From assembly GCA_963770895.1 (NCBI GenBank), contig CAVYRF010000001.1:1952001-2016000 (forward strand): 64,000 nt of DNA, given 5' to 3'. The DNA is from an uncultured Acidobacteriota bacterium (GTDB taxonomy: Bacteria > Acidobacteriota > Thermoanaerobaculia > Multivoradales > UBA5704). The notes under the pieces are model-generated. The model had not been told where the DNA came from. It ran no database searches and worked only from the letters and a program-made list of their open reading frames with translations. Position 1 is the stretch's first letter. The number at the start of each line of letters is the position of its first letter. Positions 13,747 to 58,600 of the stretch are shown piece by piece. Both the position numbers and the translations under genes were made by a program.

Positions 13747-16700
13747 TTAGTCACCGGGCTCCATTGTCGCCAGGAGCGCGCGGATGGTCTCCGCTTCGGG
13801 GATTTGCAGGCTGTCAGCGGCGGCCAGCGCCAGCGTGAGCAGGTCGTGGGCCTCTGCGAGATCCCCGGCTTGCGACCTGCTCTGGAGGCCGAGGGCCAGG
13901 TTGGTCCGGGCGACGAGCAGTCCGCGGACGTCGCCGAGTGCCTCGAAGACGGGGAGCTGTTCTTCGCGGCGAATGCGGAGTGCCTCGTCCCGTTGGCCGC
14001 GGTCCTGGAGCACAGTGGCGATTTTACCGAGGGTGATGGCGCGCGAGCGGATGTCGCCGAGGGTCTCGTAGACGGGGAGCTGTTCCTCGCGGTGGATGCG
14101 GAGTGCTTCGTCGAGCTGGCCGCGGGCCTGGAGCACGTCGGCGATTTGGCCCAAGGTGACGGCGCGCGACCGAACGTCGCCGAGTGCCTCGTAGACGGGG
14201 AGCTCTTCTTCACGGCGGATGCGGAGTGCCTCATCGAGCTGGCCGCGGGCCTGGAGCACGTCGGCGATGTCGCCCAGGGTGATGGCGCGCGACCGAACGT
14301 CGCCGAGGGCGTCGAAGACGGGGAGCTGTTCCTCGCGGCGGATGCGGAGTGCCTCGTCGAGCTGGCCGCGGGCCTGGAGCACGTCGGCGATTTTGCCCAG
14401 GGTGACGGCGCGCGCCCAAACGTCGCCGAGGGCGTCGAAGACGGGGAGCTGTTCTTCGCGGCGGATGCGGAGTGCTTCGTCGAGCTGGCCGCGGGCCTGG
14501 AGCACGTCGGCGATTTTGCCCAGGGTGACGGCGCGCGCCCGAACGTCGCCGAGGGCCTCGAAGACGGGGAGCTCTTCTTCACGGCGGATGCGGAGTGCTT
14601 CGTCGAGCTGGCCGCGGGCCTGGAGCACGTCGGCGATCTTGCCCAGGGTGACGGCGCGCTCCCGAACGTCGCCGAGGGCCTCGTAGACGGGGAGCTCTTC
14701 TTCACGGCGGATGCGGAGTGCCTCGTCGAGCTGGCCGCGGTCCTGGAGCACGTCGGCGATTTTGCCCAGGGTGACGGCGCGCGACCGGACGTCGCCGAGT
14801 GCCTCGTAGACGGGGAGCTGTTCCTCGCGGCGGATGCGGAGTGCTTCGTCGAGCTGGCCGCGGGCCTGGAGCACGTCGGCGATTTCACCGCGGGCGATAG
14901 CCCGGTCGCGCTGGTGCCCCCCTTCGCCGAAGGCAGCCGCAGCCAATTCCAGGGCGGCTTGGGCATCCTGGAGCACACCTGCCCGGCTCAGGTCGCGGCC
15001 CCGCCTTAGGTGGGCGCTTGCTGCCGCAAACAGTGCGGTCGATCCCGTTGCCCCGGCGGTCAGGTCGAGCGCCGTGGCGATCGCCGCGCGCGCCTCCGGG
15101 ATGGCGCCAAGGGGCTCGAGACCATCATGCACGCGCAACCACAGGTGTGCAGCTGCAGCGCGCTCCGTTTCGCCCTGGCCGGCAGGGAAGAGGGCCAGGC
15201 CCTGGCGGGCGACCTGGATGCAGGCGCGGTAGGCGTGGCGGTCTCTCAGGCCGAGCGCCCACCGGCTGTACGACTGCAGTGCCCCTTCGCGGTCGCCGGC
15301 GGCGTCGCGATGGTGGGCGGCAGGTGCGAAGTCAGCGAGCGTACCGGGTCGGTTTTCGAGGTGCTGCGCCACCCGCAGGTGCCAGCCGCGCGCCGCTGCC
15401 GGTCCTTCGCGAGCGGCCAGCTCGTCTTGCCGGCGGCTGGCCAGGAGGCGGTGCACGGTGTCGCCGCCTTCAAGGGCGGAGGGGGCGACCGTGCGGGCCA
15501 GGAGGCCGTGTGTACGCAGCCAGTCGAGGTCGGTGGCGGGATGGGCGAGAGCTTCCGCTTCTAGCAGCGCTTCGATCTCGGCGGTGGGCAGGGGCTGGGT
15601 GAGCAGGCAGAGGCGGTCGAAGGCCGGAAGGTGCTGGGCGGGCACGGCGTCGAGGACGGCGTCGAGCAGGAGGCTGCGGCCGCGGGCCTGCTGGGTGGCC
15701 GCGAGCCGGGCAGTCACGGCTTCAACCGCCGGCCCCATCTGTGCGAGCAGCTGGCGCGCGCGGTGGGGGCGCTCGCGCAGATAGCCGCCGAGGAGCTGCA
15801 GGGCCTTGGGGTGGCCGCCGAGGTGGTGGAGGGCCTGCTGCCAGGCGGGTTCGTCCAGGCTGCCGAGTCCTTCGGCGTCGAGCAGGCGGAGCTTGCGGCA
15901 GCCGGAGGGAGACAGTTCGCCCAGGTCGAGGTTCCAGGGGGTGCAGGGTCCGGGCGGCAGCTCCAGGGCGTGGCGGCTGGTGATCAGGATGTGGAAGCCG
16001 GGGCCGCCCAGGATCGTGAGGTCCGTCACGGCCGCGGCAAGGGCTGGATCGCGGAGGCGGCCCTGGTCGTCCTGGTTGTCTTCCAGGTTGTCCAGCAGCA
16101 GGTAGGTCGGCGTGTGGGCGGTGAGCGCGTGACGCAGAGCCTGGCGGAAGTTCTGCTCTGCAGCATCCGGGGCGAGGCCGACGGGGCGAAGCACCGCGAG
16201 GTGCACGGCGACCTCTTCGGCCAGGATGGCGGCGGTGAGGGTGCGGCCAGCGGCGATGACGAGGACGCGGGCGCCCAGAGCCTGGCTGCGTTCGAGAAAG
16301 CGGGCGGCCAGGGTCGACTTGCCGATGCCGCCCAGGCCGTGGAGGACCAGCAGGCGCTCGCCGCGGGCGCAGGCCTGGTGCAGGCGGCGTTCGGCGTCGC
16401 GGCGGCCGACGTAGCCCTGGTCGAGGTAGGTGACGCCGCCGATCGCGAACGCCTGGCGCGCGAGGTCGATGGGGGTCGGAGCGGGGGCGGCGGTGCCGGC
16501 GGGGGCGACCAGGGGGCCGGTGGCGCGGCTGGCGAGGAGGACGGGTACGGCCCATTCGTGGGGCCGGCCGTGGGCGACGAGGTGAGCGCGGCCGGCGCGC
16601 AGCGCGGCGGGCAGGTCGGTGCCGGCGCCCAGGGTGCGGTAGAAGCCTTCGGCAAAAGCCGTGGCGCCGCCGTCGGAGATGGTGCCCTGCATCGCCAGGA

Positions 16701-18309
16701 CACGCGGCAGGCCGCCCAGGACCAGGGCTTCGGCGAAGCCTTCCGGCGCGGCCGGGGGCGGCTGGGTTGGCGGCGGCGCAGGTGGGGCAGGGGCGCCTTG
16801 GGCCTGGGCGGCGGCGGCACCGGTGGCCGGGGCGCGGAAGGCTGCGCCGATGGGTGGTCCGGTGGCGCCGGCGCCGGGGTGGCCGGCGGTTGGCGGGGCG
16901 CCCGCTGTGGTGCAGGCAGCGAGGACGACGAGCTGGATCTGGGCGGCGGCGGGCGTGGCACGGGTCCAGGCCAGAAGCTGGCGCGCGCCGAGCGGGGCGC
17001 GGTGGCCGGCGGCGTTTTCGAGGTAGAGGACCGGCTGGGGTGGTTCGCCGGGGGTAGCATGGATGCCGCCGTGGCAGGCGATGTGGACCAGTTGCGGGCG
17101 TTCGGGTTGGGCGAGCTGCTGGCGCAGCTCTTCGCCTTCGCCGGTGTCGGGCAGGATGAGCCGGCTGCGCCGCTCGCGCAGGGGCTCTTCGAGAGCGAGG
17201 AGCAGGCGCTCCTGCTCGCGCTCCCAGAACAGATCGCTGTCGGCGGTCAGACCCAGGGCGCCGAGGCCGGCGCCGGCGGCCTGGTCGTCGAACGGGGCGG
17301 CGGTGAAACCGAGGACGGTGAGGTGATCGGCGGGGAGAGCGGCGGCGGTGTCGGCGGCGGGATCGGCGGGGCCGCCGGGGAGGGCGACGCGGCGCACGAT
17401 TTCGAGGAGGCCTTGGTGGACCGGGAGCGGGTGGTCGGGCAGCGAGAGGAGCTCCCAGGGCAGGGCGAGTGCGGCGGGGTCGGCGGTGCGAATTTCGAGG
17501 ACCAGGAGGGCGCCGCCGGCGGCGGCGAGCGCGAGGGCGTGGCTGAGTGCGGCGGTGAGCGGCGGCGGCAGGGTGGCGGCGAGGGCGGCGCCGGCGACGC
17601 GCAGGGTGGCCAGGTCGAGTTGACCGTTAGCGTCGTCGCCGCGGCGGAAGGCGGCAAGGACGCCGGCGGTGCCGGGGGCGAGGCGCAGGTCGGCCGGCAG
17701 CGGGCCCAGGCGCTTGGGACCGGGCCAGGCGGGGCCGAGCGGCCGGAGGTCGAGCTCGGCGGCCAGCGGCGGGGTGATCTGGGTGGCGGCGGTGGCGGTG
17801 CCGGCGGCGGCGGGCGTAGGCGGGGGCGTGAGGGAGAGGACGACGCGGGGGCGTAGGGCGGCGAGGGCCGCGACGATCTCGCGGCGGAGGCTGGCTGCGG
17901 TGGTATAGGGGCGGGTCCAGAGGCCGGTGGCGTAGTCGGTGACTTCGCGGTCGAGGAAGTCGGCCAGGGCCGGCTCGCGGGCGGCGCCGCCCGCGTGGGA
18001 GAGAAAGACCAGGCAGCGGAGGCCGGCTTCGCGGGCGAGGCGAAACTCCTCTTCGGTGATGGCGCGGTGGTCGACGGTGCCTGCCGGCGGCACGGTGCCG
18101 CGGCGTTGGTCGAAGAGGCCGAGATAGGTGTCGCAGGCCGCGAGCTCGCGCACGAGGGCGTCGCGGACGGCGGTGGGCTGGGCGATGTGGGTTTCGGTGA
18201 GGACAGGTTCGAGGCCCGCGAGGCGGGCGGCGGTCGCGGCGGCGGCGCGGAGGTCGAGGAGACCGCCGAAGACGGAGGAATAAGAACGGAGTTGGCAATA
18301 GATCCGCAC
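13747..18309 (-). CDS. DUF4062-CHAT(caspase-like)-STAND NTPase-TPR protein (NLR-like)
   Basis: N-terminal CDTYLGLF...ITEEEFRLA; CHAT motifs LPWELL, LVHIACHG, LVVLAAC, VLAMQGTISD; Walker A GLGGIGKS, Walker B LLLDNLE, GGHPKAL; C-terminal TPR array. Confidence 0.85.
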   Translation of the reverse strand: MRIYCQLRSYSSVFGGLLDLRAAAATAARLAGLEPVLTETHIAQPTAVRDALVRELAACDTYLGLFDQRRGTVPPAGTVDHRAITEEEFRLAREAGLRCLVFLSHAGGAAREPALADFLDREVTDYATGLWTRPYTTAASLRREIVAALAALRPRVVLSLTPPPTPAAAGTATAATQITPPLAAELDLRPLGPAWPGPKRLGPLPADLRLAPGTAGVLAAFRRGDDANGQLDLATLRVAGAALAATLPPPLTAALSHALALAAAGGALLVLEIRTADPAALALPWELLSLPDHPLPVHQGLLEIVRRVALPGGPADPAADTAAALPADHLTVLGFTAAPFDDQAAGAGLGALGLTADSDLFWEREQERLLLALEEPLRERRSRLILPDTGEGEELRQQLAQPERPQLVHIACHGGIHATPGEPPQPVLYLENAAGHRAPLGARQLLAWTRATPAAAQIQLVVLAACTTAGAPPTAGHPGAGATGPPIGAAFRAPATGAAAAQAQGAPAPPAPPPTQPPPAAPEGFAEALVLGGLPRVLAMQGTISDGGATAFAEGFYRTLGAGTDLPAALRAGRAHLVAHGRPHEWAVPVLLASRATGPLVAPAGTAAPAPTPIDLARQAFAIGGVTYLDQGYVGRRDAERRLHQACARGERLLVLHGLGGIGKSTLAARFLERSQALGARVLVIAAGRTLTAAILAEEVAVHLAVLRPVGLAPDAAEQNFRQALRHALTAHTPTYLLLDNLEDNQDDQGRLRDPALAAAVTDLTILGGPGFHILITSRHALELPPGPCTPWNLDLGELSPSGCRKLRLLDAEGLGSLDEPAWQQALHHLGGHPKALQLLGGYLRERPHRARQLLAQMGPAVEAVTARLAATQQARGRSLLLDAVLDAVPAQHLPAFDRLCLLTQPLPTAEIEALLEAEALAHPATDLDWLRTHGLLARTVAPSALEGGDTVHRLLASRRQDELAAREGPAAARGWHLRVAQHLENRPGTLADFAPAAHHRDAAGDREGALQSYSRWALGLRDRHAYRACIQVARQGLALFPAGQGETERAAAAHLWLRVHDGLEPLGAIPEARAAIATALDLTAGATGSTALFAAASAHLRRGRDLSRAGVLQDAQAALELAAAAFGEGGHQRDRAIARGEIADVLQARGQLDEALRIRREEQLPVYEALGDVRSRAVTLGKIADVLQDRGQLDEALRIRREEELPVYEALGDVRERAVTLGKIADVLQARGQLDEALRIRREEELPVFEALGDVRARAVTLGKIADVLQARGQLDEALRIRREEQLPVFDALGDVWARAVTLGKIADVLQARGQLDEALRIRREEQLPVFDALGDVRSRAITLGDIADVLQARGQLDEALRIRREEELPVYEALGDVRSRAVTLGQIADVLQARGQLDEALRIHREEQLPVYETLGDIRSRAITLGKIATVLQDRGQRDEALRIRREEQLPVFEALGDVRGLLVARTNLALGLQSRSQAGDLAEAHDLLTLALAAADSLQIPEAETIRALLATMEPGD
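13921..14904 (-). repeat. Eight tandem 123-bp (41-aa) near-identical TPR-type repeats
   Basis: Consensus RAVTLGKIADVLQARGQLDEALRIRREEQLPVYEALGDVRS; DNA period 123 bp. Confidence 0.95.
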
Positions 18310-18460
18310 ACCGCACCCCCGTCGATAACTTTAGCAGTGAATGGCGTCATGATAGGGAGCGGCAGCGAGGCAGTCAACCGCTCGAATGCCTCTGGAAAGC
18401 GTGATGGCGCCGAGCCCCGCGCCGCCAGCCTGCCGGTGCTGCTGGCCGGCAGTCCCCGGT

Positions 18461-43663: not shown

Positions 43664-45175
43664 ATGCGTACGCAAACCCTTCCTTTCCGCCTCGCGGTGC
43701 GCCGCGCTCTCTTTTTGGCTCTGGCGTTTGCCCTGGCGGCCGGCATCCCGGCCAGCGCTGCCACGGGGCATCGTGTGGTTGTAATTGGCACGGTGTCCGC
43801 GGTCGATGCAGCAGCCGGCAACCTTGCCGTCACGCCGCGCTATCCCAACCACGCCGCAGCCATCACGCTGCAAACCAACGCGCAGACCGCCCTGACGTTG
43901 GACGGAGCGCCGGTCAAGCTGGCCGACGTCCCGGTCGGTTCGGAAGCGCGGGCGGCTTACAACTCGGCGACCAAGGTGGCGATGCGCGTCGACACGATTT
44001 CGCCGCACCCGCTGGGAGCGGTGCAAGGTACGGCGACAGCGGTCGCGGCCTCCTCGATCACCATCGCCCCCCAACGCGGCGGCGCGGCGGTGACGCTCCA
44101 AACCAATGCGTCCACGGAGATCCTGCTCGACGGCGCCACCTCGACGCTGTCTGCGATCGCGGCCGGCGATCAGGCGAGCGCCCTGTTTGACAGTTCGACC
44201 AAGGTCGCGATCGTCATCGAAGCCCAGGCGCCGCACCATGCGTTCACCGCGGTCGAGGGGCAGGTCACCGCAGTCGCTGCCTCTTCCATCACCATCGAGC
44301 CCGAAGGCGGCGGCGCGGCGGTGACCCTGGACACCAACTCGTCGACGCGGGTGTTTCTCAACGGTTCGCCGTCCACCCTGTCCGCCATCGCCACCGGCGA
44401 CAAGGCCGGCGCGCTCTATGACAGCTCGACGATGCTCGCGACACTCATCCAGGCACTGTCGCCGCAGACCGTACCGCAAGAGGTCGAGGGCCAGGTGACG
44501 GCGGTCGCCGCCTCTTCGATCACCATCGCGCCCCAGGGCGGCGGCGCGGACGTCACGCTCGGCACCGATGCCGCGACCCAGATCTTCGTCAACGGCGCGC
44601 CGGCCAGCCTGTCCGCGATCGCCACCGGTGACAGCGCCCGCGCCCTCTACGACGGCACGACCCTCATCGCCCAGGTGATCCAGGCACAGGCACCGCACCA
44701 CCAGCTCGCCGCCGTCATCGGCCAGGTGACCGCGCTGACCAGCGCCTCGCTCACCATCACCCCGCCGCACGGCTCCGCGGTCACCATCACCACCAACGCG
44801 ACCACCCAGATCTTCCTCGACGGCGCCCCGGTCAACCTCTCCGCCCTCGCCGCCGGCGACCAGGCCCAGGCCCTTTACGACACCGGCACCCAGGTCGCCG
44901 TGATCATCTCAGCCCAGGCCCCCCGCCAGCAGGTCGCCCAGGTCGAAGGCAAGGTCACCGCGGTAGCCGCCGCCTCGATCACCATCACCCCCGAAGGCCC
45001 AGGTGGCAGCGCGCCGGTGACCCTGACCACCACCTCCTCCACCCAGATCTACCTCAACGGCAAGACCGCCCCCCTCACCGCCCTCGCCGTCGGCGACCCA
45101 GCCCGCGCCCTCTACGAAACCTCAACCCTCACCGCCCTGGCGATCGAAGCCGTGTCTGCGCCAGCGCACTATTGA
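43664..45175 (+). CDS. Secreted protein with six DUF5666-like repeats
   Basis: Signal peptide; six repeats of about 78 aa (VEGQVTAVAASSITI...T.IFLNG...LSAIA.GD.A.ALYD). Confidence 0.8.
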   Translation: MRTQTLPFRLAVRRALFLALAFALAAGIPASAATGHRVVVIGTVSAVDAAAGNLAVTPRYPNHAAAITLQTNAQTALTLDGAPVKLADVPVGSEARAAYNSATKVAMRVDTISPHPLGAVQGTATAVAASSITIAPQRGGAAVTLQTNASTEILLDGATSTLSAIAAGDQASALFDSSTKVAIVIEAQAPHHAFTAVEGQVTAVAASSITIEPEGGGAAVTLDTNSSTRVFLNGSPSTLSAIATGDKAGALYDSSTMLATLIQALSPQTVPQEVEGQVTAVAASSITIAPQGGGADVTLGTDAATQIFVNGAPASLSAIATGDSARALYDGTTLIAQVIQAQAPHHQLAAVIGQVTALTSASLTITPPHGSAVTITTNATTQIFLDGAPVNLSALAAGDQAQALYDTGTQVAVIISAQAPRQQVAQVEGKVTAVAAASITITPEGPGGSAPVTLTTTSSTQIYLNGKTAPLTALAVGDPARALYETSTLTALAIEAVSAPAHY

Positions 45176-46273
45176 GTACTGCATAACAAATGTCCTACTT
45201 GAGGCGCAAAAAAAGAGGACTGTGCGCCAGGAAGGATCGAAGCAGAGGCTGATTCCGCTGAAGGCTGCGGTGGCCGTGACGGGCGGCGGCGGTGAGTGCG
45301 TCGAGTTGAGTCGGCGCCAGGTTGGCCATAGCGCCGGTCTTCAAATACGACCAGACATACTCGACGGGGTTGAGGTCGGGGGCGTACGGAGGCAGGAAGG
45401 ACGCTCGCGACCCGAAGGTTTGCCGAAGAACCTGGTCAACCCGGTTGCTGCGATGAGCTTGGAGGCGATCCCAAATCACAACCGCCCGGCCTGGCAAATG
45501 GCGAGCAAGGCCGCGGAGAAACTCCACGATCTCGGTGATGCAGATATTGCGGTCTGGATGCAGCCGGAAGAAGAGCGACAACTCATCGCGGCTCGGTGGG
45601 ATGCATAGAGCGGCGATTGCCGAGACCTTTTGATGAGAACGGGTCCGCTGCACCAGCACTGGCGTTCGACCATGGCGCGACCAGCTTCGACGGACCCACG
45701 GGGCCATCAAGAAGCCGCTCTCGTCGATAAATACCAGCGTTGCATTCAGGCGCCAGGCTTTTTTTTAATGCGGGGCCACTCCTGCTTAACCCACGTCTGA
45801 ATTTTCTCCTCGTCGCGTTCGATGGCGCGTCGCTGAGGCTTCTGCGGACTCCAGCCGAGACTGTGCAGGAGCCGGCCGACATGATCAGCGTGGTATTGCA
45901 CCGCGAACTGGGAGCGGATCACATCTGCGACCCGCGGACACGTCCACAGATCTGTCGGATACCCTGCGGCCTGGGCGCCCTGCAGCAGCAGCTCTTCCAG
46001 CGCAGCCTTGGTCTCCTGATGAAGTCGACTCGGGCGTCCCGGTACCGGCTTGGCCCGCAAGCCGATCGCTCCGCCCTGCTGATGCGCCGCCTTCCAACGC
46101 CGAACGCTCCTTCGATCGACTCCTACCATCCGAGCCACCTCAACCGGAGGCAACCCCTCTCGGAGAAGCTCTACAGCGCGCCTGCGCCGCCGTTCCAACT
46201 CCTCTGGGCTTCCTTGAGGACGCATCCCTATCCTCCCACCCAGAGTATAGGACATTCATTATGCAGGCATCAA
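45172..46273 (-). mobile_element. IS630-family insertion sequence
   Basis: Imperfect TIRs TTGAgtacTGCATAAcaAATGTCCTA / TTGAtgccTGCATAAtgAATGTCCTA; TA duplication at 45170-45171 and 46274-46275; lower GC. Confidence 0.92.
45195..46225 (-). CDS. IS630 transposase (HTH ORF 45746-46225 plus DDE ORF joined by -1 frameshift at an A8 run)
   Basis: A8 slippery run at 45759-45766; shifted frame reads LVFIDESG...VIWDRLQAH...LPPYAPDLNPVEYVW. Confidence 0.88.
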
Positions 46274-46463
46274 TAGCCACCAAAATCCACCCGGACCGCG
46301 TCACCTGTCCCGCCGCGGTCGTCTGCCCCCCTACCACCCGCCACCTATCGCCAGCCGCGGCGGCGAAGAACCTGCGGCTGCTCCCCTTCGAGGTGGTGCG
46401 CCAGCGCCTGTCCAGTCGGTGTCCTCAGGCGCCGGCGCCCTGCGATCGCCCTGGCCGTTGGGC

Positions 46464-46691
46464 TCAAGATTCGTCGCGCAGTTTGTTGACCAAGGTCATC
46501 GTCGGCATCGGGCCGCCGGACGGTCGGCGGGGAAGTAGCGGATCCCCATTGCGAACCTGGGAGATCTGGGCCGGCTCCATGGCCTTGCGTACCAAGTCGG
46601 AGATCACCTGGCCGATCGTTGAGCCACGGCTGCGTGCGATCTCTTTGACAGCCTGCAGCACGTCATCGTCGATGTTGAGGGTAGTTCGCAT
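46464..46691 (-). CDS. VapB/CopG-like RHH antitoxin with no cognate toxin seen
   Basis: MRTTLNIDDDVLQAVKEIARSRGSTIGQVISDLVRKA...RNG..LLP. Confidence 0.8.
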   Translation of the reverse strand: MRTTLNIDDDVLQAVKEIARSRGSTIGQVISDLVRKAMEPAQISQVRNGDPLLPRRPSGGPMPTMTLVNKLRDES

Positions 46692-46787
46692 GGCACCGCG
46701 AATTGTAGCTCCAGGGCTGGAACACGCCCCTCGCTCTTGGGACGTGGTGTCTGTAAGTTCGCTGTTGTTCGCGACCCGGCCGGTCAG

Positions 46788-47612
46788 CTAGGGGCTGGCG
46801 GCGGCGGTTGCGATGTAGCGAGCGATGTTTTGTTCCAGGACGGGGAGGGGGACGGAGCCGCTGCCCAGGACGGCGTCGTGAAAGTCGCGGACGTCGAAGC
46901 GGGGGCCCAGAGCTTGTTCGGCCTGGTGGCGGAGCTGTTGGATCTTCAGCTGGCCGACCTTGAAGGCCAGGGCCTGGCCGGGGAAGGAAGTGTAGCGGTC
47001 GGTTTCGGTTTCGACCTCGTGCAGGGATAGCGCGGTGTGCGCGGCCAGATAGTCCATGGCCTGGCGGCGCGACCAGCCGCGGGTGTGGATGCCGGTGTCG
47101 ACGACCAGGCGGCAGGCGCGCCACATCTCGTAGCTGAGGCGGCCGAAGTTGCTGTAGGGATCGGTGTCCAGACCGGCTTCCAGGCCCAGCCATTCGCTGT
47201 ACAGGCCCCAGCCTTCGCAGAAGGCCCAATGGTAGAGATAGCGGCGGAACGGCGGCAGGCCGGTGATCTCGCGCGCCAGGGCGATCTGCAGGTGGTGGCC
47301 GGGAACGGCTTCGTGCAGGGTCAGGGCGACCAGGTTGTAGGTCGGGCGTGACGCCAGCAGCGAGGTGTTCACCCAATAGGTGCCGGGTTGGGTGCTGCCG
47401 GCCTGCGGCTCGACGTAGCGGCCGGCGGTGTAGTTGGGGGCGATGCTGTCGGGCACCGGCGCAACGGTGTAGGGAGTGCGCGGCGGGGTGCGCACCAGCG
47501 AGGGGAGCTTGCCGTCGATGGTCTTGGCGATGAGGGCGGCGCGGCGCAGCAGCTCTTCGGGGGTCTTTGCGTAAAAGCGCGGGTCGGTGCGCAGGAACTG
47601 CAGGAACTCCGG
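46788..47612 (-). pseudogene. 5'-truncated DUF885-family gene (C-terminal part only)
   Basis: FLRTDPRFY, HEAVPGHHLQIALA, AFCEGWGLYSE, WRACRLVVDTGIH, PGQALAFKVGQLKI; upstream sequence is unrelated. Confidence 0.8.
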
Positions 47613-47675
47613 ACTTCCGTCCTCGTAAGCGGACACGAAGACTGATGCACGCAGCCCCACGGGTTCATTCATCAG

Positions 47676-47830
47676 TTGCCACCCTGCCGCGTCACCCTCC
47701 GAGGACGCAAATCCCAGCCCCGCTACCCCGAAGACCCCCGGACTTTGGGCGAGCACCTCCGCCGGGCGCGCCTCTACCGGGGCCTCCCGCAGCGACAGGT
47801 GGCCGAGGTGATCGGCTGGCGTCCAGCACG
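47676..47830 (+). pseudogene. XRE-type HTH fragment of the kind found on integrative elements
   Basis: YPEDPRTLGEHLRRARLYRGLPQRQVAEVIG, then similarity is lost. Confidence 0.5.
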
Positions 47831-47912
47831 GCACCATCGCAGACCAAGGTCCCGTTACGACGATAGTGAGACAGCTCGGACAATCGGGCAAGCACCCGAC
47901 TAGCGGACGTGG

Positions 47913-47945
47913 TTGACATAGCTCTATGGTATCGCCTACGATACC
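47913..47945 (+). promoter_or_regulatory. TA promoter with palindromic operator
   Basis: TTGACA-18 nt-TACGAT; palindrome GGTATCG-ccta-CGATACC overlaps the -10. Confidence 0.65.
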
Positions 47946-47948
47946 GCG

Positions 47949-48377
47949 GTGTCGCTCCCGCGGGTCGTCCTCGACACGAATGTGTTGGTCGCGGCCTCGC
48001 GGTCGAAGAGGGGGGCATCTGCCAGGCTCCTGTCGCTGATCGGGACGGGCAGTTTCGAGATGGTGCTCTCTGTGCCGCTCCTTCTGGAATACGAGGCGGT
48101 GTTTGTGCGGGGTCTTGCACCTGACTCGTCTGAGCGGCAAACCAGAGAGGAACTCCTCGATTACCTTTGCGCGGTTGCCGAGCGGCAGGAGATCTTCTTC
48201 TTGTGGCGGCCTCATTTGAGAGATCCGCAGGATGAGATGGTCCTGGAGGCGGCGGTTGCCGGAGGCTGCGGAAGGATCATTTCCTTCAACAAGAAGGATT
48301 TCGTGGGCGCAGAGCGGTTCGGTGTGGTCGTCCTTACTCCCCGGGAGTTTCTCGAAGAGATAGGAGCAGTATCATGA
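47949..48377 (+). CDS. PIN-domain TA toxin
   Basis: RVVLDTNVLVAA, LLLEYEAV, LRDPQDEMVLEAAVAG, IISFNKKDF, TPREFL. Confidence 0.9.
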   Translation: MSLPRVVLDTNVLVAASRSKRGASARLLSLIGTGSFEMVLSVPLLLEYEAVFVRGLAPDSSERQTREELLDYLCAVAERQEIFFLWRPHLRDPQDEMVLEAAVAGGCGRIISFNKKDFVGAERFGVVVLTPREFLEEIGAVS

Positions 48378-48610
48378 GCACGATCAGCCTGAGGCTTCCG
48401 GACTCCTTGCATGAGCAGATCCGGAAATTGGCGAACGTGGACGGTATTTCTATCAACCAGTTCATCAGCACGGCGGCCGCCGAGAAACTGGCGGCTCTCA
48501 TGACCGTCGACTATCTGGAGGAGCGTGCAAAGCGCGGGACTCGGCAGAGGTTCGAGGCTGCACTCAAACGCCTGCCAGATGTCGAGCCGGCTGATGATGA
48601 CAAGTTGTAG
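48374..48610 (+). CDS. RHH/HicB-like antitoxin
   Basis: MSTISLRLPDSLHEQIRKLANVDGISINQFISTAAAEKL; ATGA overlap with the PIN gene. Confidence 0.88.
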   Translation: MSTISLRLPDSLHEQIRKLANVDGISINQFISTAAAEKLAALMTVDYLEERAKRGTRQRFEAALKRLPDVEPADDDKL

Positions 48611-48869
48611 GCTTGGGTTGCGCACGGCGGCCCGATCCTCTTTGATCCTTGAAGTCCCTGTCGCAGGAGCGCGCGGCTTGGGAGTAGAGGCCAAAGAGCT
48701 CGGGCCAGGATTGGCTGATCTCTTTCCCGGTCTCGGAATCCTCGCAAAGGATCTGTCCGCCAGGCTTATTTCGCACAGGCCATAAAGCAGCGCGGGGCCT
48801 CGGGTTCACCCTGCTCCCAGGGTTAGTCGATTCAAGAGCTTTGAAACCAACCAGAGGAGCCTGTCTTAT

Positions 48870-50024
48870 ATGTCTAAGAGCATCTTCCTTTCTGGGTGGG
48901 ACTACAATCGTGTACTTCGAGAAGACCCCCTGAGGCCGTCGGCATCGGGACTACCGGCACAGGTACTCTGGAGCGGGTCTGCGCAATTCTGGCTTTTTGA
49001 AACAGTGTATTGCTCCAAGGAAGCCCTTGAGGGAGATATGGCTGCGTATACTGCGCTGGGGTGGACGACCGGTAAGATTTTCGCCGATCTCGCCAGTAGG
49101 GGTTTTCTAACACCTATCGACTTCGGCTCCTACATAACAAAAGATGACGCGCTCTTGACGCAATTCACCAGTATCCACAAATTGCTTCATGAGCACTACG
49201 ACCGAACCGAGATAAGAAAATATCTTGAGGAAGGAAACGATGTCGAGCTCGAGGCGATAAAGCTTAGGCTGTTGTCTCCTCTCCTCAGGCGCCTTCAGTG
49301 CGTCAAGAACGTCTCTCCCAATAGCATACGCCATTGGATTGCCCCGCGGCGTAAAGCCTCTCAGATGCCTGCGGCCGGCACAACGGCGGCGGGGCTTTTT
49401 GACGAGGCGCTTGCAACAGGTGGTGCCGGCAGTATGCGTGCTTCCTTTCGTCTGTGCGATCCTCCGGGCACGGGGTTACCACAATCCGTTGTCACCGAGC
49501 AAGCGCGCATTGAACAACAGGTTCAGCGCCCCCTAATACCCGCTCTTCTGGAGGGTAGCCTTCCCATGGCCGAGTTTCATGAAGCGCTGGTGCCAACACG
49601 CAGCTATTACGAACCCATCAATCAGCAGCTATGGGACAATTATCTCCATAACATCGACAGACTGGAACGCCTTCGTGATATTGCCAAGATTCACCTTTGG
49701 CCGAATTTGCACAGCGAATGGTTGCCATCGCTCGAATCAGATCCGGGGTACTTACGTAAGTTTCGCTCTCGACTAAGGGATGCGCTCTTGCGAAGTCGCT
49801 ACGATCCATATCTCCAGTTTGGAACCGACCTGGCAATAAACGCCGTTAGCCTGGGCGCAGGCGCGGCCGCGGGTCTTGCAGCTCCAGATCTCTTTACCGG
49901 CGCTGCCGCTATGGGGATGACGGTTTATACAGTGAGGCGTGGCCTAGAGATCGTTCATGGAGAGGTGCGTAAGCGCTCCGACAGCCTGACCTTGTTTCTA
50001 CAAAAGGCGGCTATCAAGAAATGA
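48870..50024 (+). CDS. Hypothetical protein (384 aa, lower GC)
   Basis: GAGGAG RBS, long open frame in a lower-GC segment, C-terminal Gly/Ala-rich hydrophobic stretch; no family recognised. Confidence 0.8.
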   Translation: MSKSIFLSGWDYNRVLREDPLRPSASGLPAQVLWSGSAQFWLFETVYCSKEALEGDMAAYTALGWTTGKIFADLASRGFLTPIDFGSYITKDDALLTQFTSIHKLLHEHYDRTEIRKYLEEGNDVELEAIKLRLLSPLLRRLQCVKNVSPNSIRHWIAPRRKASQMPAAGTTAAGLFDEALATGGAGSMRASFRLCDPPGTGLPQSVVTEQARIEQQVQRPLIPALLEGSLPMAEFHEALVPTRSYYEPINQQLWDNYLHNIDRLERLRDIAKIHLWPNLHSEWLPSLESDPGYLRKFRSRLRDALLRSRYDPYLQFGTDLAINAVSLGAGAAAGLAAPDLFTGAAAMGMTVYTVRRGLEIVHGEVRKRSDSLTLFLQKAAIKK

Positions 50025-50581
50025 CGGGAGATAGCAGCGTGAAAGAGATCGCCTGGAGGCTCCTTGAGCGTAAGGTGCTGTTGGAAAATCAATGGGTTAC
50101 CGTTGAGTGTAATCGGTACGCGACTCCAGATTTGGAGAGCGTCCCAGACTACCTGGTAGTGCGACGGCGGCCATTTGTGGTGATCGTTGCAGAGGATGAT
50201 GGCTGCGTCTTGTTCATAAGACAGTATAGGCCCGCCACGAATAAGATATATTTGTGTCTCCCCGCTGGTTTCTGTGCGGACCAGGAAGACCCGACTTTGG
50301 CCGGGCAACGAGAACTGCACGAGGAAACCGGCTACGAAGGTCGCTCATTTCGCCAATTGGGCGTGCTCGACCCTCTGCCTGGCTATGTATCCTCACCGGC
50401 GCACATTTTGCACTGTCAATTGGGACGTCGGGGTGAACATCTTGATCCCGACAAAGAGTCGCTAGAGGTTCTGCTTGTTCCCTGGAGCCAAATTCTCCGA
50501 GAGATCATGGACGGTGGTATAGACGAAATGCAGGCAGTTGCGGCGTTGTTGTTGGCCTATACCAGAGGTGCACAATCCTGA
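50021..50581 (+). CDS. Nudix hydrolase (ADP-ribose pyrophosphatase-like)
   Basis: Intact Nudix box G-FCADQ-E-DPTLAGQ-RELHEETGY; IRQYRP; ATGA overlap with the upstream gene. Confidence 0.9.
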   Translation: MTGDSSVKEIAWRLLERKVLLENQWVTVECNRYATPDLESVPDYLVVRRRPFVVIVAEDDGCVLFIRQYRPATNKIYLCLPAGFCADQEDPTLAGQRELHEETGYEGRSFRQLGVLDPLPGYVSSPAHILHCQLGRRGEHLDPDKESLEVLLVPWSQILREIMDGGIDEMQAVAALLLAYTRGAQS

Positions 50582-50592
50582 TAGAGACCCTG

Positions 50593-50655
50593 GCAAGGGA
50601 TCACAAAAAGTGCACGCGGCCCCAGTGATGTGTGCACCTTTTGTGATCCGCTTGC
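50593..50655. repeat. Long inverted repeat between convergent genes
   Basis: GGATCACAAAAAGTGCAC ... GTGCACCTTTTGTGATCC (17/18 match), flanked by GCAAG/CTTGC. Confidence 0.8.
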
Positions 50656-50712
50656 GGGGCCGGATTCCGCGTCCCTGGTGCCCCGAGAGGTCCCGGAAGG
50701 TGGGCGAGGACT

Positions 50713-52500
50713 TCAAACAGGCCCGCCTCGATCGGCCTGCAGCGTCGCCGGCGGCACCCGTGATGGGCGGTGGTTACTGAGAGATCTCAGGATCGCGTCC
50801 AGCACCATGTCCAGCTCCTTGCCGACATCTTCGGCGAGGAATCGGAGCACCAGATAGCCGCGCTCCTGGAGCAGCTGATCCTTGCGCCTGTCCCGTCGGT
50901 AGGCGATCGGGTCTGCGAGATGCTGGGCGCCGTCCAGTTCCACTGCCACCCGCGCATCGGCGCAGAGCAGGTCGACCTCCATGCTCGCCATGCCGTTGAA
51001 CGGGATCAGTAATGTCGCGTTGACGCCGAAGCGGTCCTTCGTTTCCGGGAGTGTCTCCAACCGTCTGAATAGAAAGGCCTCCGTGGCGCTCCGCGCGCGG
51101 TTGGCACCGATGGCGTCAGAAGGCACGGCTCTCGCGACGTGGATGAACAGGCTGGCGAGTGGTGCATCGATACCGTCACGAACGAGCCGTCGTACGCTGC
51201 CCGAGTAGTCTCGCTTCCACGCGGGGTCTGACGGCAGGACAACGTCCGCGGGCCAGCCCGGGATCGCGCTTGCGGGGAGGATCACGGTGTAGCCGACGGT
51301 CTCGTACCCGCGGCAGCGACGGTCGAACATCCGCGCGAGCATCGATACGTTGAGGTCGGCGTAGTCGTAGATACGTACTTCGCGCTTGCCGTCGTATAGC
51401 CGATGCAGTCGGCCCGCGTATTGAGCGACGGTGCCACGCCACGAGACCGGCAACGTAAGGAACAGCGTATCGAGTCGAGGATCATCGAACCCTTCGCCGA
51501 CGTAGCGGCCGGTAGCAAGGATGACGCGGGGTTCGTCTCGCGGGATGTTGGCCAGTCGTTCGGCGATGGCATTGCGCTCCTTCTTTCCCAGTTTGGCCCG
51601 CAGCACCAGCAGGTGTTGAATCCGGTCGATGAGCCCGCGTTCGAGTCGGTCCAGGTGGTCATTGCGCTCGGTCAGAACCAGAGGCGAACGTCCATTGCGA
51701 ACCGACTCCAGTACGTCGTCGCAGATCCGTCGATTGCGCGGCTCGTCTTCTACCAGCGCTCGGTAGAGAGCCTGGAACTCACGGCGCCTATCGGGATCGG
51801 GCGGTCGGGTGGACTGGAATGACGTCGGCTGCACGAGGGCGTAGTGCTCGAAAGGACGGGCTGCTGCCTGTGACCGGGCACTCACGCGATGCCGGATTGG
51901 ACCACACTGCATAACTAGAAAGGTGGCAAGCCGCTCGATCCACTGATGGAGCAACTGCCGTCGATGGACGAGGACGAGCGTGTTCACGCCGCGCTCAGCA
52001 ATGAGCCACGCGGCGACGACGGTCTTGCCGAAGGCCGTGGTGGCGGCCAGTACGCCGGTGTCGTGCTTCAGAATGGCTCTGCGGCAACCTTCTGCTCAGG
52101 ACGCAACTCGCCGTGGAAGGCGACATCGAGGGGACGACCGATCGAGCGTTCGTCCCGAATGGTCATGCGAACGCGCAGCGCGTGGAGCGTCTGCTGGATG
52201 TCCTCGAGGCAGCCGCGCGGCAGGGCGACGTGGTGAGGGTGGTCCTCGGCGCAGGCGATCACCCGCGGCTTGTCATAAGTGGATAGCCGCATTGCCTGGG
52301 CCTTGTAGAACTCTGGATTCTGAAATGCTGCTAGGCGAAGCAGCCGGTTCCTCAGACCGGGATGAAGTGCGTCCTTGGGGACGTAGATCTGATTGCCCAA
52401 GACCACGGGTACACGTCGTCTCGACCTCGGAAGAGGGATTGGAAGAGGGCGATCTTGATCTCGGATCGCGACGTCCGGTCGACTGAGCTCGCGATCAGAC
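50713..52500 (-). pseudogene. Decayed primase-like/SF2 helicase/DUF559 endonuclease fusion gene
   Basis: KIALFQSLFRGRDDVYP, LAAFQNPEFYKAQAMRLS, Walker A ATTAFGKT, GEGFDDPRLDTL, QYAGRLHR, VAVELDG..H; frameshift near 52075 and missing internal blocks. Confidence 0.8.
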
Positions 52501-55432: not shown

Positions 55433-55670
55433 GATGTCTCCTCCTTTGCCGCAACGTTACGTTAAAGAAAGACCGCTGTAAAGAACGCCGCCGCGGCAGC
55501 CCATCGCATGGAGCGATCGCGCCGATGTTGCGCCGCATTGCACTCGATAAATGACGTCTTGTTGCCGGAAAGCGACGCGTTTGACGACTGATCGCGTTGC
55601 TATATTTCAAACCGATCAAGTTTTTTCTGCGCTCCCGGATCACTCAAACGAAAGGGATATTTCGAACAAT

Positions 55671-58600
55671 ATGAGACCGATTTGTGCGCCAAATGCTGCG
55701 CTGCGGGATGCCGAGCTGCCGGCGGGCGTGCTGGCCGCCTGGTTGCGCGGCGCGGCGGCGCGGGCTCTGGGCATCCAGCCGGCAGATGTGCCGCTCGATC
55801 GGTCGCTGGTAGGCCTGGGCCTGGATTCGCTGGCGGCGGCGGAGCTGGCGGCGGCGATCGAAGCGGATCTGGCGGTGCCGGTCTCGATTGCGGACCTGCT
55901 GGAAGGACCCAGCGTCACCGAGCTGGCCGAGCGCATCGCGGTGCTGCAGGCTGCGGATTCGCCGGGCAGCGAGGCCGCCTCAAGCGGCGAGCCGGGGCAG
56001 GAGCCCAAGCCGGAGCCGAGCGGTGCGCTCGCGCAGGGCGGCGACGCGGCGCCGGATCGCCAGCCTCTCCGCCATGCGCTGACGCAGGGACAGCAGGCCC
56101 TCCTGGCTCTCGACCGCAGGTCCGCGGGCGGGGCCGCCTACATCATCAGCGCCGCGGCGCTGATCGAGGGCGACCTGTCGGTGGCGCGGCTGCGCGCAGC
56201 GCTGGCGGCGCTGATGGCGCGGCATCCCGCCTTGCGCGCCACCTTTCACGAGAGCGCCGGCGAAACCGAACAGGTGGTGCGGGACCAGGCGGCATTCGAG
56301 TGGGTGGAGGAGGCGGCGGAGGGCTGGAGCGACGCCCAGCTGCGTGCCTGGATGGCGGAACAGGCGCACCGGCCGTTTGACCTGGAGGCGGGGCCGGTGT
56401 TGCGGGTGGCGCTGCTGGGGTGCGGCGCGCGGCGGCACCGGTTGGTGTTCGCGGTGCACCACCTGGTGGCGGACTTCGGGTCGCTGGGGATCTTGCTCGC
56501 GGACCTGCGCGCGCACTACGGCGGGGCCGCGCTGCCGCCACCGGCGCCGGGCGCCTCGTACGCCCAAGTCGCACGGCGCGAGGCGGCCTGGGTCGCGGGA
56601 CCCGAAGGGCAAGTGCAGGCGGCATTCTGGCGTGGGCAGTTCGCCGGCGGGGTGCGGGCGCTCGACCTGCCGGCCGACCGGCCGCGCCCGCCGCTGCCCA
56701 GCTTTCGCGGCGGCGCCCGCGGGCTGCGGTTCGACGCGGAGGTAAGCCGGTCGCTTGCGGCGGTGGGCCGCGAGGTGGGGGCGACGCCGTTCATGACGCT
56801 GCTCGCGGTCTATGTGGCGCTGCTGCACCGGCTCAGCGGCACCGAGGACTTCTGGGTGGGGACCCCTGCCGCGGGGCGGCGGGACGCGGACCTGGACGGA
56901 GTCGTCGGCTACTTCGTCAACCCGGTCGCCGTGCATGCCAGGATCGGCGCCAGGCCGCGTTTCGAGGAGCTGCTGCGGCGCCAGCGCGCCGCGGCGCTGG
57001 CCGCCTTTGCCCACCAGCGGCTGCCCTTCGCGCTGGCGGCGGCGGAAGTTGCGGGAGGGCACGACCCCAGCCGGTCGCCCGTCTTCCAGACGATGTTCGT
57101 GCTGTACCGCGAGCGCGCCGGCGACCGGGGACTGGCCGCGCTGGCGATGGGCGAGGGCGATACGCCGCTCGACCTGGGCGGCGGCGTGGTGGTGCTGCGG
57201 CCGGCGCCGCTCGAGCGGCGAGCGGCGCAGCTGGACCTCACGTTGCAAATGGCCGAGATCGACGGCTGCTATGCGGCATCGCTCGTCTATAGCGACGATC
57301 TGTTCGACGCCGCGACCGCCGCGCGCATGCTGGGACAGCTGCGCAGCCTGGCGGAGGCGGTGGCCGCGCCGGGCGGCCGCACGGTGCGAGTGGCGGAGCT
57401 GCCGCTGCTGTCGGCGGCCGAATCGCACCAGCTCATGGTCGAGTGGCAGGGCCAGGCCGGCGCCGAGCCGGCCGGCGACGGTCTGTGCCTGCACCAGCTG
57501 TTCGAGCGGCGGGCGGCGCTGACGCCCGCCGCGGTGGCGCTGGTCTGCGAGGGCGCGGAGCTGACCTACGGCCAGCTGAGCCGCAGCGCCAACCGTCTGG
57601 CGCGGCACCTGCGCCGCTTCGGGGTGGGGCCCGAGGTGCGGGTCGCGCTCTGCCTGGAGCGCGGTATCGACCTGGTCGTGGCGCTGCTCGCGGTGCTCAA
57701 GGCGGGCGGTGCCTACGTGCCGCTCGATCCTGGCTACCCTCGCGAGCGCCTGCGCTTCGTCGCCGCCGATGCCCTGGCGGACGTCGAACATCCGGTCCTG
57801 ATCACCCGGCGACAGCTTGCCGGCCTGTTCGCCCCCGCCGCCCCCGCCCCCGACGCTGCCGCACCCGGCGCTGCCGCACCCGGCGCCGCCGCACTCGATG
57901 CCGCTGCGTTCGACGCCGCGGCCCGGCGACCCTTCCGCCTGCTGCTGGTGGATGGAGACCGCCAGGCGATCGCCGCCGAAAGTGCCCAGGACCTGGCGGC
58001 CGGCGCGGCACCCGCGGCTTTGGCCTACGTGATCTACACCTCGGGCTCGACGGGCCGGCCCAAGGGGGTGATGGTCAGCCATGCCAACGTGACTCGCCTG
58101 CTGCGCCAGACCGAGCGGTGGTACGGCTTCGGCGCACGGGACGTCTGGCCGCTCTGCCATTCGGCGGCGTTCGACGTTTCGGTGTGGGAGATCTGGGGCG
58201 CCCTGCTCTACGGCGGCCGCCTGGTGATCGTGCCGTATTGGGCCAGCCGCGCTCCCAACGCCCTGCATCGCCTGCTGGTGGAGCAGCGGGTGACGGTGCT
58301 CAACCAGACGCCGTCGGCATTCCGCCAGCTGATCGAAGCCGATGCCGCGGCGGACGCGGCGGCGCGGCGCGACCTGGCGCTGCGCTGGGTGATCTTTGCC
58401 GGCGAGGCGATCGACCTGGCCTCGCTGCGGCCGTGGGTGGAGCGCCACGGCGAGGCGGCGCCGCGCCTGGCGAACATGTACGGCATCACCGAGACGACGG
58501 TCCATTCCACCTGGCGGGCGCTGACGGCGGCCGATCTGGACGATCCGGGGCGCAGTCCGATCGGCGTCGGCATCGCCGATCTGAGCCTCTACCTGCTGGA

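Follow-up and report, generated by a model that had tools for sequence, protein, structure and literature searches.

Can a single bacterial gene place two different executioner enzymes under the control of one NLR-like switch, and what would such a protein be for? The question is raised by a gene on the minus strand of a 64,000-nt stretch of DNA from an uncultured soil Acidobacteriota bacterium (contig CAVYRF010000001.1, assembly GCA_963770895.1), hereafter called the window, to whose positions all coordinates refer. The gene (13747..18309) is an open reading frame (ORF) of 1520 codons plus a stop, has a GTG start and encodes 1520 amino acids; its G+C (GC) content at codon positions 1, 2 and 3 (0.83, 0.53 and 0.86, respectively) is of the coding type. 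A first-pass annotation, made from the sequence alone, had described the product as an NLR-like protein with two effector domains, DUF4062 and CHAT, followed by a STAND NTPase and a TPR sensor, and this architecture is real, since all four domain kinds score above their Pfam cut-offs. On balance, we regard the protein as probably a single-gene NLR-like (STAND) abortive-infection receptor of bacterial conflict or defence, in which, by analogy with known receptors, oligomerisation would switch on both an NADase and a protease.

The domain calls survive profile searches at curated thresholds. DUF4062 (PF13271), also called NIR, is matched at residues 11–92 with 33.9 bits against a cut-off of 24.7, covering profile positions 5–82 of 82, whereas CHAT (PF12770) is matched at residues 242–470 and in a second stretch with 65 bits against a cut-off of 24. 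AAA_16 follows at residues 635–749 (34.4 bits against 32.6), and TPR_12 is recognized in eight stretches (84.6 bits against 30.1). NB-ARC (14.6 bits against 23.5) and nSTAND6 (23.0 against 27.7) both remain under their gathering scores in the window copy, and a scan of the protein against NCBIfam returned nothing close to any cut-off. The motifs pointed out in the first-pass annotation were all located: the glutamate motif AITEEEF at residues 83–89, the catalytic-His motif IACHGG, containing ACHG, at residues 410–415, the catalytic-Cys motif VLAAC, containing LAAC, at residues 462–466, Walker A (GLGGIGKST) at residues 658–666, and Walker B (LLLDNLED) at residues 737–744.

A word-indexed search with residues 1–760 returned 43 proteins at E≤0.001, one of which is the window's own protein and 40 of which are clear relatives (P0003–P0042; E≤8.5e-133, 41–60% identity, 937–1486 amino acids). 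CHAT is listed in the precomputed Pfam column of all 40 and DUF4062 in 36; the sequences of the remaining four begin inside that domain. Judged from these sequences, the DUF4062+CHAT+STAND+TPR architecture defines a small family of 40 clusters, nearly all from Acidobacteriota. Its 13 related loci in species-representative genomes belong to Holophagales (2), Thermoanaerobaculia (6), unclassified Acidobacteriota (4) and Planctomycetota (1). A phmmer search with residues 1–620 against 1.84 billion cluster representatives gave 2798 matches at E≤0.001 and 24 at E≤1e-30, of which about ten cover both NIR and CHAT, indicating that few proteins carry the fused pair, compared with the many in which CHAT and DUF4062 occur separately. 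Other relatives carry one enzyme or the other, being built either as CHAT-STAND-TPR proteins that lack DUF4062 (P0043, P0062, P0080, P0155, P0176 and P0180) or as DUF4062-NACHT-repeat proteins that lack CHAT (P0171, P0190 and P0191).

Conservation within the family extends to both predicted active sites. The family alignment of 34 rows comprises residues 1–620 of the window protein, a truncated paralogue from the same genome, and 32 of the 40 relatives, the omitted ones being either short or partial (P0009, P0011, P0013, P0014 and P0016) or cut at the N-terminus (P0030, P0034 and P0038). In this alignment, E86, E88, H409, H413, G414 and C466 are invariant, and the columns of the P-loop and of Walker B come close to invariance. 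Scanned singly, all 34 members carry CHAT and DUF4062, 31 carry AAA_16 and 31 carry TPR_12; NB-ARC and nSTAND6 are matched at E≤0.001 in 22 and 19 of them, respectively. Mean pairwise identity amounts to 0.63 for NIR, 0.59–0.67 for CHAT and 0.58–0.60 for the NTPase (0.58 for its nucleotide-binding domain, NBD); both enzymes are thus constrained at least as much as the NTPase switch, while the helical region before the repeats, at 0.42, is the least conserved folded part. The CHAT domain of the family is a divergent subtype, which in the genome scan scores 39.6 bits as opposed to more than 200 bits for the typical CHAT genes of the genome. That genome (G000) shows a large CHAT expansion, with 34 profile matches in some 30 genes, mostly frames of about 1000–1200 amino acids scoring 170–238 bits; it also holds four DUF4062 matches, including C2:4012564-4012806 (in a 1044-residue frame) and C2:4751102-4751383 (in a 406-residue frame). 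In a tree read from 14 rows, three others (L012–L014) being disregarded because they stem from wrong reading frames, the Planctomycetota copy falls inside the Acidobacteriota set on a long branch, a placement that is unsure, and the window copy pairs weakly with its paralogue (87/48).

The glutamate is conserved well beyond the family. In a second alignment of 22 DUF4062 proteins from outside the family and 5 from inside it, E88 is invariant (27/27), the next residue is Phe or Tyr in 22, and E86 is kept in 24. The texts of three 2026 preprints (bioRxiv 10.64898/2026.09.04.749371, 10.64898/2026.05.01.722283 and 10.64898/2026.06.25.731849) describe DUF4062 as a TIR-like NADase yielding ADP-ribose and nicotinamide, which also occurs in Avs2 and other NLR-like proteins, and report that phage defence by Swarozyc, PsAvs2 and Vulcan depends on its catalytic Glu, E97 in KpSwz and E108 in PsAvs2. 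The window copy reads E88-F89, matching the E-[YF] catalytic motif, and the pattern around E88 fits the "conserved Glu" and the "E-Y region" of these NADases; from the motif, rather than from an alignment to those proteins, we infer that E88 is equivalent to E97 and E108.

An AlphaFold2 model of residues 1–620 reached a mean predicted local distance difference test score (pLDDT) of 81 and a predicted TM-score (pTM) of 0.85. When compared with solved structures by VIA-align, the CHAT part (~152–600) matched the Craspase TPR-CHAT protein Csx29 (Z 21.9, root-mean-square deviation (rmsd) 3.9, 305 residues aligned), followed by separase (Z 21.3), gingipain R (18.8), SAVED-CHAT (18.6; 22% identity) and DdvA (16.0). 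The predicted His-Cys dyad is formed by H413 (CHG), after the strand 407–411, and C466 (AC), after the strand 460–464. The NIR part (residues 1–153) matched the CMP N-glycosidase MilB (Z 13.7, rmsd 2.6, 134 aligned), DNPH1/Rcl (13.6) and BcmB (13.6), and Foldseek also listed the nucleoside deoxyribosyltransferase 8pqt and the SARM1 TIR domain 6o0v. The sequence of the NIR domain gave no match among PDB chains at E≤10. The fold matches of the model are the same picture that the text of the first of the three preprints (hereafter the NIR preprint) reports for PsAvs2. For residues 600–1130, modelled with a pLDDT of 86.6, Foldseek placed Apaf-1 at the top (7.6e-07), followed by the STAND-TPR protein 6mfv, CED-4, Avs3, MalT and plant NLRs.

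How the two enzymes are joined bears on the proposal of the first-pass annotation that the receptor might release its own N-terminal domain, which the models do not support, as they place no flexible linker between NIR and CHAT. The CHAT fold begins at about residue 152–154, straight after the NIR fold. According to the model, the low-pLDDT stretch 162–181 is a copy-specific loop inside CHAT and not an inter-domain linker; it is covered by 15 of 561 family pairs, with a mean identity of 0.24. A second disordered stretch, residues 467–522 (pLDDT 38–48), is variable and mostly absent in relatives (covered by 46 of 561 pairs, identity 0.34). It lies directly after the catalytic Cys, which in caspases is the site of the inter-subunit linker. 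When residues 1–165 and residues 182–620 were predicted as two chains, the score was 0.89, as opposed to 0.22 for the best of three controls, with a contact agreement of at least 94% and a partner pLDDT of at least 67; 116 of 157 solved complexes and 2 of 215 mismatched pairs attain this mark, but here the score is inflated because the cut left the first CHAT strand (153–164) in the NIR chain. Beyond this shared strand, contacts are predicted through the NIR helices 22–32 and 139–151. NIR and CHAT are predicted as one rigid unit rather than as beads on a string, and the two enzymes may therefore be switched together.

At the other end of the protein, the presumed sensor is an array of near-identical repeats. 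Tandem Repeats Finder (TRF) reported a period of 123 nt at 13928–14885, counting 7.8 copies with 91% matches. Among the seven canonical units, six share 91–98% DNA identity, and identity to the last unit is 82–86%. Diversifying selection was considered and rejected, as the ratio of nonsynonymous to synonymous substitution rates (dN/dS) over the seven canonical units is 0.37, with few variable positions (7, 14, 36, 40 and 41) and no sign of positive selection. Adjacent units of 40 or 41 residues are at least 65% identical in 25 of the 41 family proteins longer than 1100 amino acids, and the region in which adjacent units are at least 50% identical ranges from 0 to about 9 units across the family, the window copy having the most. 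High internal repeat identity is described in the text of an earlier preprint as a known trait of fungal and bacterial NLRs that is tied to rapid reshuffling (bioRxiv 10.1101/2020.01.06.895854), and the homogenised array would fit a fast-evolving sensor. The same type of repeat is common to two genes of the genome: L010:4344-6287 (minus strand; G000:C2, ~180.3–182.3 kb), near genes for a DUF2397 protein and a Phd/YefM antitoxin-domain protein, encodes a TPR-only protein of 647 amino acids with about nine copies of the 41-residue unit type, 71–73% identical to the window's array.

How the protein would work as an abortive-infection receptor can be proposed from its analogues, the Avs proteins, Apaf-1 and plant TNLs. 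Its TPR array would bind a foreign protein, most likely a phage protein; ligand binding would free the NTPase for nucleotide exchange and oligomerisation, and the latter would crowd the N-terminal modules together. The NIR domain could then hydrolyse NAD+, while the CHAT protease could cut cellular proteins or the receptor itself, so that the infected cell would arrest growth or die. The earlier suggestion of a self-contained defence or cell-death receptor thus stands in so far as the NLR architecture carries two conserved enzyme domains and later work has shown DUF4062 to act as an NADase effector in defence; the receptor's defence role, however, is read from the domains of the protein.

Each half of this scheme is known from other systems. 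PsAvs2 and other NIR-STAND-repeat proteins share with the window protein an N-terminal DUF4062 with a catalytic Glu, a central STAND module and C-terminal TPR-type repeats encoded by a single gene, and for PsAvs2, the Glu is reported in the text of the NIR preprint to be needed for defence and NAD+ to be depleted (bioRxiv 10.64898/2026.09.04.749371). The window protein differs in having a complete CHAT domain between NIR and NTPase, and its NTPase is NB-ARC/nSTAND6-like; no PADLOC Avs model matches the protein. In the bacterial Apaf-1-like "all-in-one" NLRs, as their published descriptions have it, a caspase-fold or CHAT domain directly precedes an Apaf-1-like NTPase with TPR or WD40 repeats (PMC7159879, PMC13581612), and the repeats have high internal identity (bioRxiv 10.1101/2020.01.06.895854); the window family adds a second enzyme, DUF4062, ahead of its divergent CHAT. 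Type IV Thoeris likewise brings about abortive infection through a TIR-type NAD+-processing enzyme and a caspase-like protease, but according to the preprint text (bioRxiv 10.1101/2024.10.24.620036), it does so with two genes linked by diffusible N7-cADPR, with the TIR protein as the sensor and with neither STAND nor TPR array, whereas in the window, a single gene holds both domains in one chain. Swarozyc, Evangelion, Vulcan, Vesta and human TEP1/NWD1 have the same effector domain with its E-[YF] motif and are activated by assembly on a trigger; their sensors, however, are AUX, HEAT or NACHT-WD40, and none is described in these preprint texts as having a protease domain (bioRxiv 10.64898/2026.05.01.722283, 10.64898/2026.06.25.731849). 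Craspase Csx29 (8d9g), SAVED-CHAT (8tl0) and separase (7nj1), the best structural matches of residues ~152–600 with the same His/Cys dyad, are activated by CRISPR effector complexes, cyclic oligoadenylate and securin release, respectively, and cut defined substrates; neither a STAND NTPase nor an NADase is part of any of them.

According to the texts of several papers, bacterial STAND proteins commonly use caspase-like and TIR domains as their N-terminal effectors (PMC7159879; bioRxiv 10.1101/2020.01.06.895854; PMC13581612). CHAT is not mentioned in the running texts of the three 2026 DUF4062 preprints, a statement that leaves their figures and supplements aside. In the literature searched, no paper contained both "DUF4062" and "CHAT", although a CHAT fusion may appear in Fig. 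S1D-E (on auxiliary enzymatic domains) of the Swarozyc preprint or in Fig. 2 of the NIR one; both terms are absent from the six text supplementary files of PMC13581612.

The gene lies among ordinary neighbours. A NAD-dependent epimerase gene and a Germane lipoprotein gene flank it, and TonB-dependent receptor, ThyA, SurA, response regulator and valyl-tRNA synthetase (ValRS) genes lie in the wider flanks of the window; no mobile-element genes are found among the neighbours. As noted earlier from the sequence, the adjacent genes include no candidate substrate such as a gasdermin; they include no TIR gene either, and no neighbour is conserved across the 13 related loci. An all-against-all comparison of ORFs from 15 loci returned no flanking family in more than five loci as a conserved partner; the family with five loci is an amidohydrolase of closely related contigs, and the groups that span 6 to 10 loci consist of shadow ORFs within the gene itself. 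Gasdermin (PF04598) had no match in the whole genome either, which tells little, as the control genomes have none and the genome is 94.95% complete.

The presence of the gene is patchy. Among 40 relatives and the genome itself, the full N-terminal module occurs only in G000, G013, G023 and G027, and a full homologue is found in none of nine same-genus genomes. Of five relatives compared by DNA, three (G003, G002 and G016) have an empty insertion site at which the epimerase and Germane/thyA genes touch, and G011 is not syntenic there. In the fifth, the same-genus genome G009, the same epimerase/thyA site (L021, G009:C96:49000-57500) instead holds genes for a GGDEF protein, an S15 X-Pro dipeptidyl-peptidase and a patatin-like phospholipase. 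The empty or differently filled sites indicate that the gene is an accessory insertion at a variable site, and patchy presence together with an empty site in close kin fits an accessory conflict gene.

The defence reading has to be weighed against the possibility that the gene is not anti-phage at all, being instead the bacterium's own signalling or regulated-cell-death switch, engaged in stress, development or kin conflict, whose protease would act on a specific regulator in the manner of CHAT-containing anti-sigma factors. A close structural match of the modelled CHAT part, DdvA, is such an anti-sigma factor (21–22% identity); the genome holds about 30 CHAT genes, so that CHAT is not rare here and need not always be defensive; and such systems are linked to multicellular and social bacteria in the text of Kaur et al. 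2020 (PMC7159879). The housekeeping neighbours without mobile-element genes agree with this; the window locus is not a defence island. PADLOC v2.0.0, whose library dates from 2023 and is older than the NIR work, matched the window protein solely with the generic model PDLC01169, "TPR repeats containing protein". Applied to 89 flank ORFs of the 13 related loci, it gave matches in 7 loci. In three of the 13, a defence gene of fair specificity lies no farther than 7 kb away, encoding an AriA/GajA-like ATPase fragment in one, a TIR protein in another and PDC-S03 at full length in the third; the flanks of the other ten have no matches or only generic ones (helix-turn-helix, kinase, partial Uma2-like). 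In addition, the nearest folds to the modelled NIR domain are nucleotide N-glycosidases (MilB, DNPH1), so that a substrate other than NAD+ may be possible. Apart from the three loci with a fairly specific defence gene, which speak for it, these points weigh against the receptor we propose. However, the patchy occurrence and the empty site in close kin are at odds with a role in the bacterium's own signalling, as is the homogenised repeat array; every tested bacterial DUF4062 protein covered by the preprint texts acts in phage defence, and the NIR preprint finds such genes near defence genes in 20.0% of cases against 3.9% expected (bioRxiv 10.64898/2026.09.04.749371). A non-defensive switch strikes us as quite improbable.

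Two further alternatives concern the enzymes themselves. Rather than acting as independent effectors, NIR and CHAT could be wired in series, or guard each other, within one chain, an arrangement we hold to be unlikely. CHAT could keep NIR inactive and free it on activation by rearrangement or cutting; the NIR product, an ADP-ribose-type molecule, could gate the fused protease as in the two-gene type IV Thoeris; or the protease could process itself at the loop after its catalytic Cys. Such wiring would agree with the packed NIR-CHAT unit, in which the two NIR helices add contacts, with the long disordered insertion that directly follows Cys466, and with type IV Thoeris, in which activation of a caspase-like protease by a TIR protein is established, as its text reports (bioRxiv 10.1101/2024.10.24.620036). 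Yet the high interface score comes largely from the domain cut, the strand 153–164 belonging to the CHAT sheet, and no conserved cleavage site is evident, as relatives either lack the stretch 162–181 and the loop after the Cys or vary in them. Moreover, the preprint texts report ADP-ribose without further derivatives for the DUF4062 of human TEP1, ADP-ribose and nicotinamide for KpSwz, and no cyclic signal, and the caspase of type IV Thoeris is believed to sense its signal by means of a C-terminal domain that the window protein lacks. The other alternative, that the window copy is damaged or mis-assembled at its 5' end by a deletion or an assembly error affecting the first NIR strand, carries more weight, and we treat it as a doubtful but serious possibility; the gene as written would then encode a receptor whose protease works but whose NADase is weakened or dead. 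The first-pass annotation has to be corrected here, as the first 10 residues of the window copy (VRIYCQLRSY) depart from the family start MxLGRVF[IV]. All other listed uncut N-termini of the family, including that of the truncated paralogue, read [RKST][VL]F[IVL]SS, as opposed to VRIYCQLRSY-SS in the window copy, which MAFFT aligns by means of a 5-residue insertion, and residues 8–15 of the model have a pLDDT below 50. The atypical, low-confidence N-terminal strand may mean that the NADase of this copy is impaired, a further point against the receptor as proposed. Four public runs were compared as Logan contigs, the uncovered parts of the stretch being uninformative. In record 7 of run X5, the only public contig spanning the site, 71 letters replace base 18280, exactly where codon 10 meets codon 11, the first conserved one, with at most one other differing letter in each flank, and a contig of a second run (X1) ends 9 nt from the same point. 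However, the 71 letters need not hold a canonical start, and the Logan contigs are of low depth (6.4) and metagenome-derived; the two versions may reflect variation in the population or a difference in assembly. The ORF itself is unbroken: it has its GTG start, preceded by a G-rich stretch resembling a ribosome-binding site and by a promoter-like site, and VRIYC may serve as the first strand, R-I-Y-C standing for R-V-F-I, a reading that the model adopts. A frameshift was also considered, as another frame reads SVLI just before SSVFGG, but MAFFT favours the 5-residue insertion. An exact 28-mer search of metagenome contigs for a longer 5' form gave no matches, and no direct repeats surround the site.

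The features of the gene are collected in Table 1. Ahead of the GTG start, a G-run (GGGGG) lies at a distance of 6 nt, and the promoter-like sequence farther upstream, a consensus match only, was found once as opposed to 0.1 times expected in shuffles.

Table 1. Positions in the window of the domains, motifs and other features assigned to the putative receptor gene
Feature	Coordinates	Strand	Evidence
Whole gene, NIR(DUF4062)-CHAT-STAND-TPR	13747..18309	-	ORF list, translation, Pfam, GC3 0.86
Promoter-like site TTGACT-17-TATCAT, 40 nt upstream of GTG start	18349..18377	-	Consensus scan
DUF4062/NIR TIR-like domain, residues 1–152	17854..18309	-	Pfam, invariant E88, fold matches
Atypical codons 6–10 (QLRSY) before conserved SSVFGG	18280..18294	-	N-terminus listing, alignment
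E88 codon (predicted catalytic Glu, motif AITEEEF)	18046-18048	-	Alignments
CHAT caspase-like protease domain, residues 153–600	16510..17853	-	Pfam, invariant H413/C466, structure alignment
Copy-specific Pro/Ala/Thr-rich loop, residues 162–181, between CHAT fold strands 1 and 2	17767..17826	-	
His413 codon	17071-17073	-	Invariant in family
Cys466 codon	16912-16914	-	Invariant in family
Disordered Ala/Pro-rich insertion, residues 467–522, immediately after catalytic Cys	16744..16911	-	
STAND NTPase (NBD-HD-WHD), residues 620–1000	15310..16452	-	AAA_16, Foldseek
Walker A	16312-16338	-	
Walker B	16072-16101	-	
Helical region between NTPase and repeat array, residues 1001–1128	14926..15309	-	All-helical model
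Eight near-identical 41-residue TPR-like units, residues 1129–1456	13942..14925	-	TRF, TPR_12
Degenerate last repeat and C-terminal cap, residues 1457–1520	13750..13941	-	Translation, repeat register

The truncated paralogue, found by tblastn at L009:5876-7537 (G000:C2:3343875-3345536), is a second DUF4062-CHAT copy of 553 amino acids with 67% identity, which is cut inside CHAT after RVLAMQ, where GC falls from 0.75 to 0.54. Downstream of the break, out to L009:12192, lie a 346-residue ORF that matches no Pfam profile, a RadC-like gene and a gene for a phage-type integrase; no tRNA is found near the paralogue. It looks like a remnant disrupted by foreign DNA, and a stand-alone DUF4062-CHAT module with the 346-residue ORF as a coupled partner was ruled out by the break in CHAT and the drop in GC. 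Elsewhere in the window, positions 44000–52000 have a GC of 0.56–0.66, as opposed to about 0.72, and contain several ORFs that no Pfam profile matches, a DDE_3 transposase fragment (45195-45710, minus strand), a DUF559/restriction-endonuclease-like gene (50713-51987, minus strand) and a NUDIX gene (50021-50581, plus strand); this is probably a mobile or foreign segment. At 55551-63998 (plus strand), a non-ribosomal peptide synthetase of more than 2816 amino acids, with four condensation, two adenylation and three carrier-domain stretches, runs past the end of the window.

TIR-like NADases and caspase-like proteases are two executioner types common to bacterial, plant and animal innate immunity, and both are known on separate STAND receptors or as two signal-linked genes in type IV Thoeris. 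The family described here carries both executioners on one Apaf-1-like receptor and, as judged from its alignment, keeps both catalytic centres. The fusion could even constitute a built-in two-step death switch under NLR control, which we consider a long shot: the protease at rest would cover the alpha-A/alpha-E face that a TIR-like NADase needs for its self-assembly, and STAND oligomerisation or a protease cut would free the NADase, or else the NADase product would gate the protease. If true, this switch would compress a type IV Thoeris-like TIR-to-caspase cascade into one polypeptide and would amount to a bacterial "apoptosome" with its own caspase and NAD+ executioner. The family would allow a direct test of whether two death activities act in parallel, in series or guarding one another, and of how one oligomerisation event switches two enzymes; with it, the Acidobacteriota, a poorly studied soil phylum, would be added to the map of NLR-like immunity.

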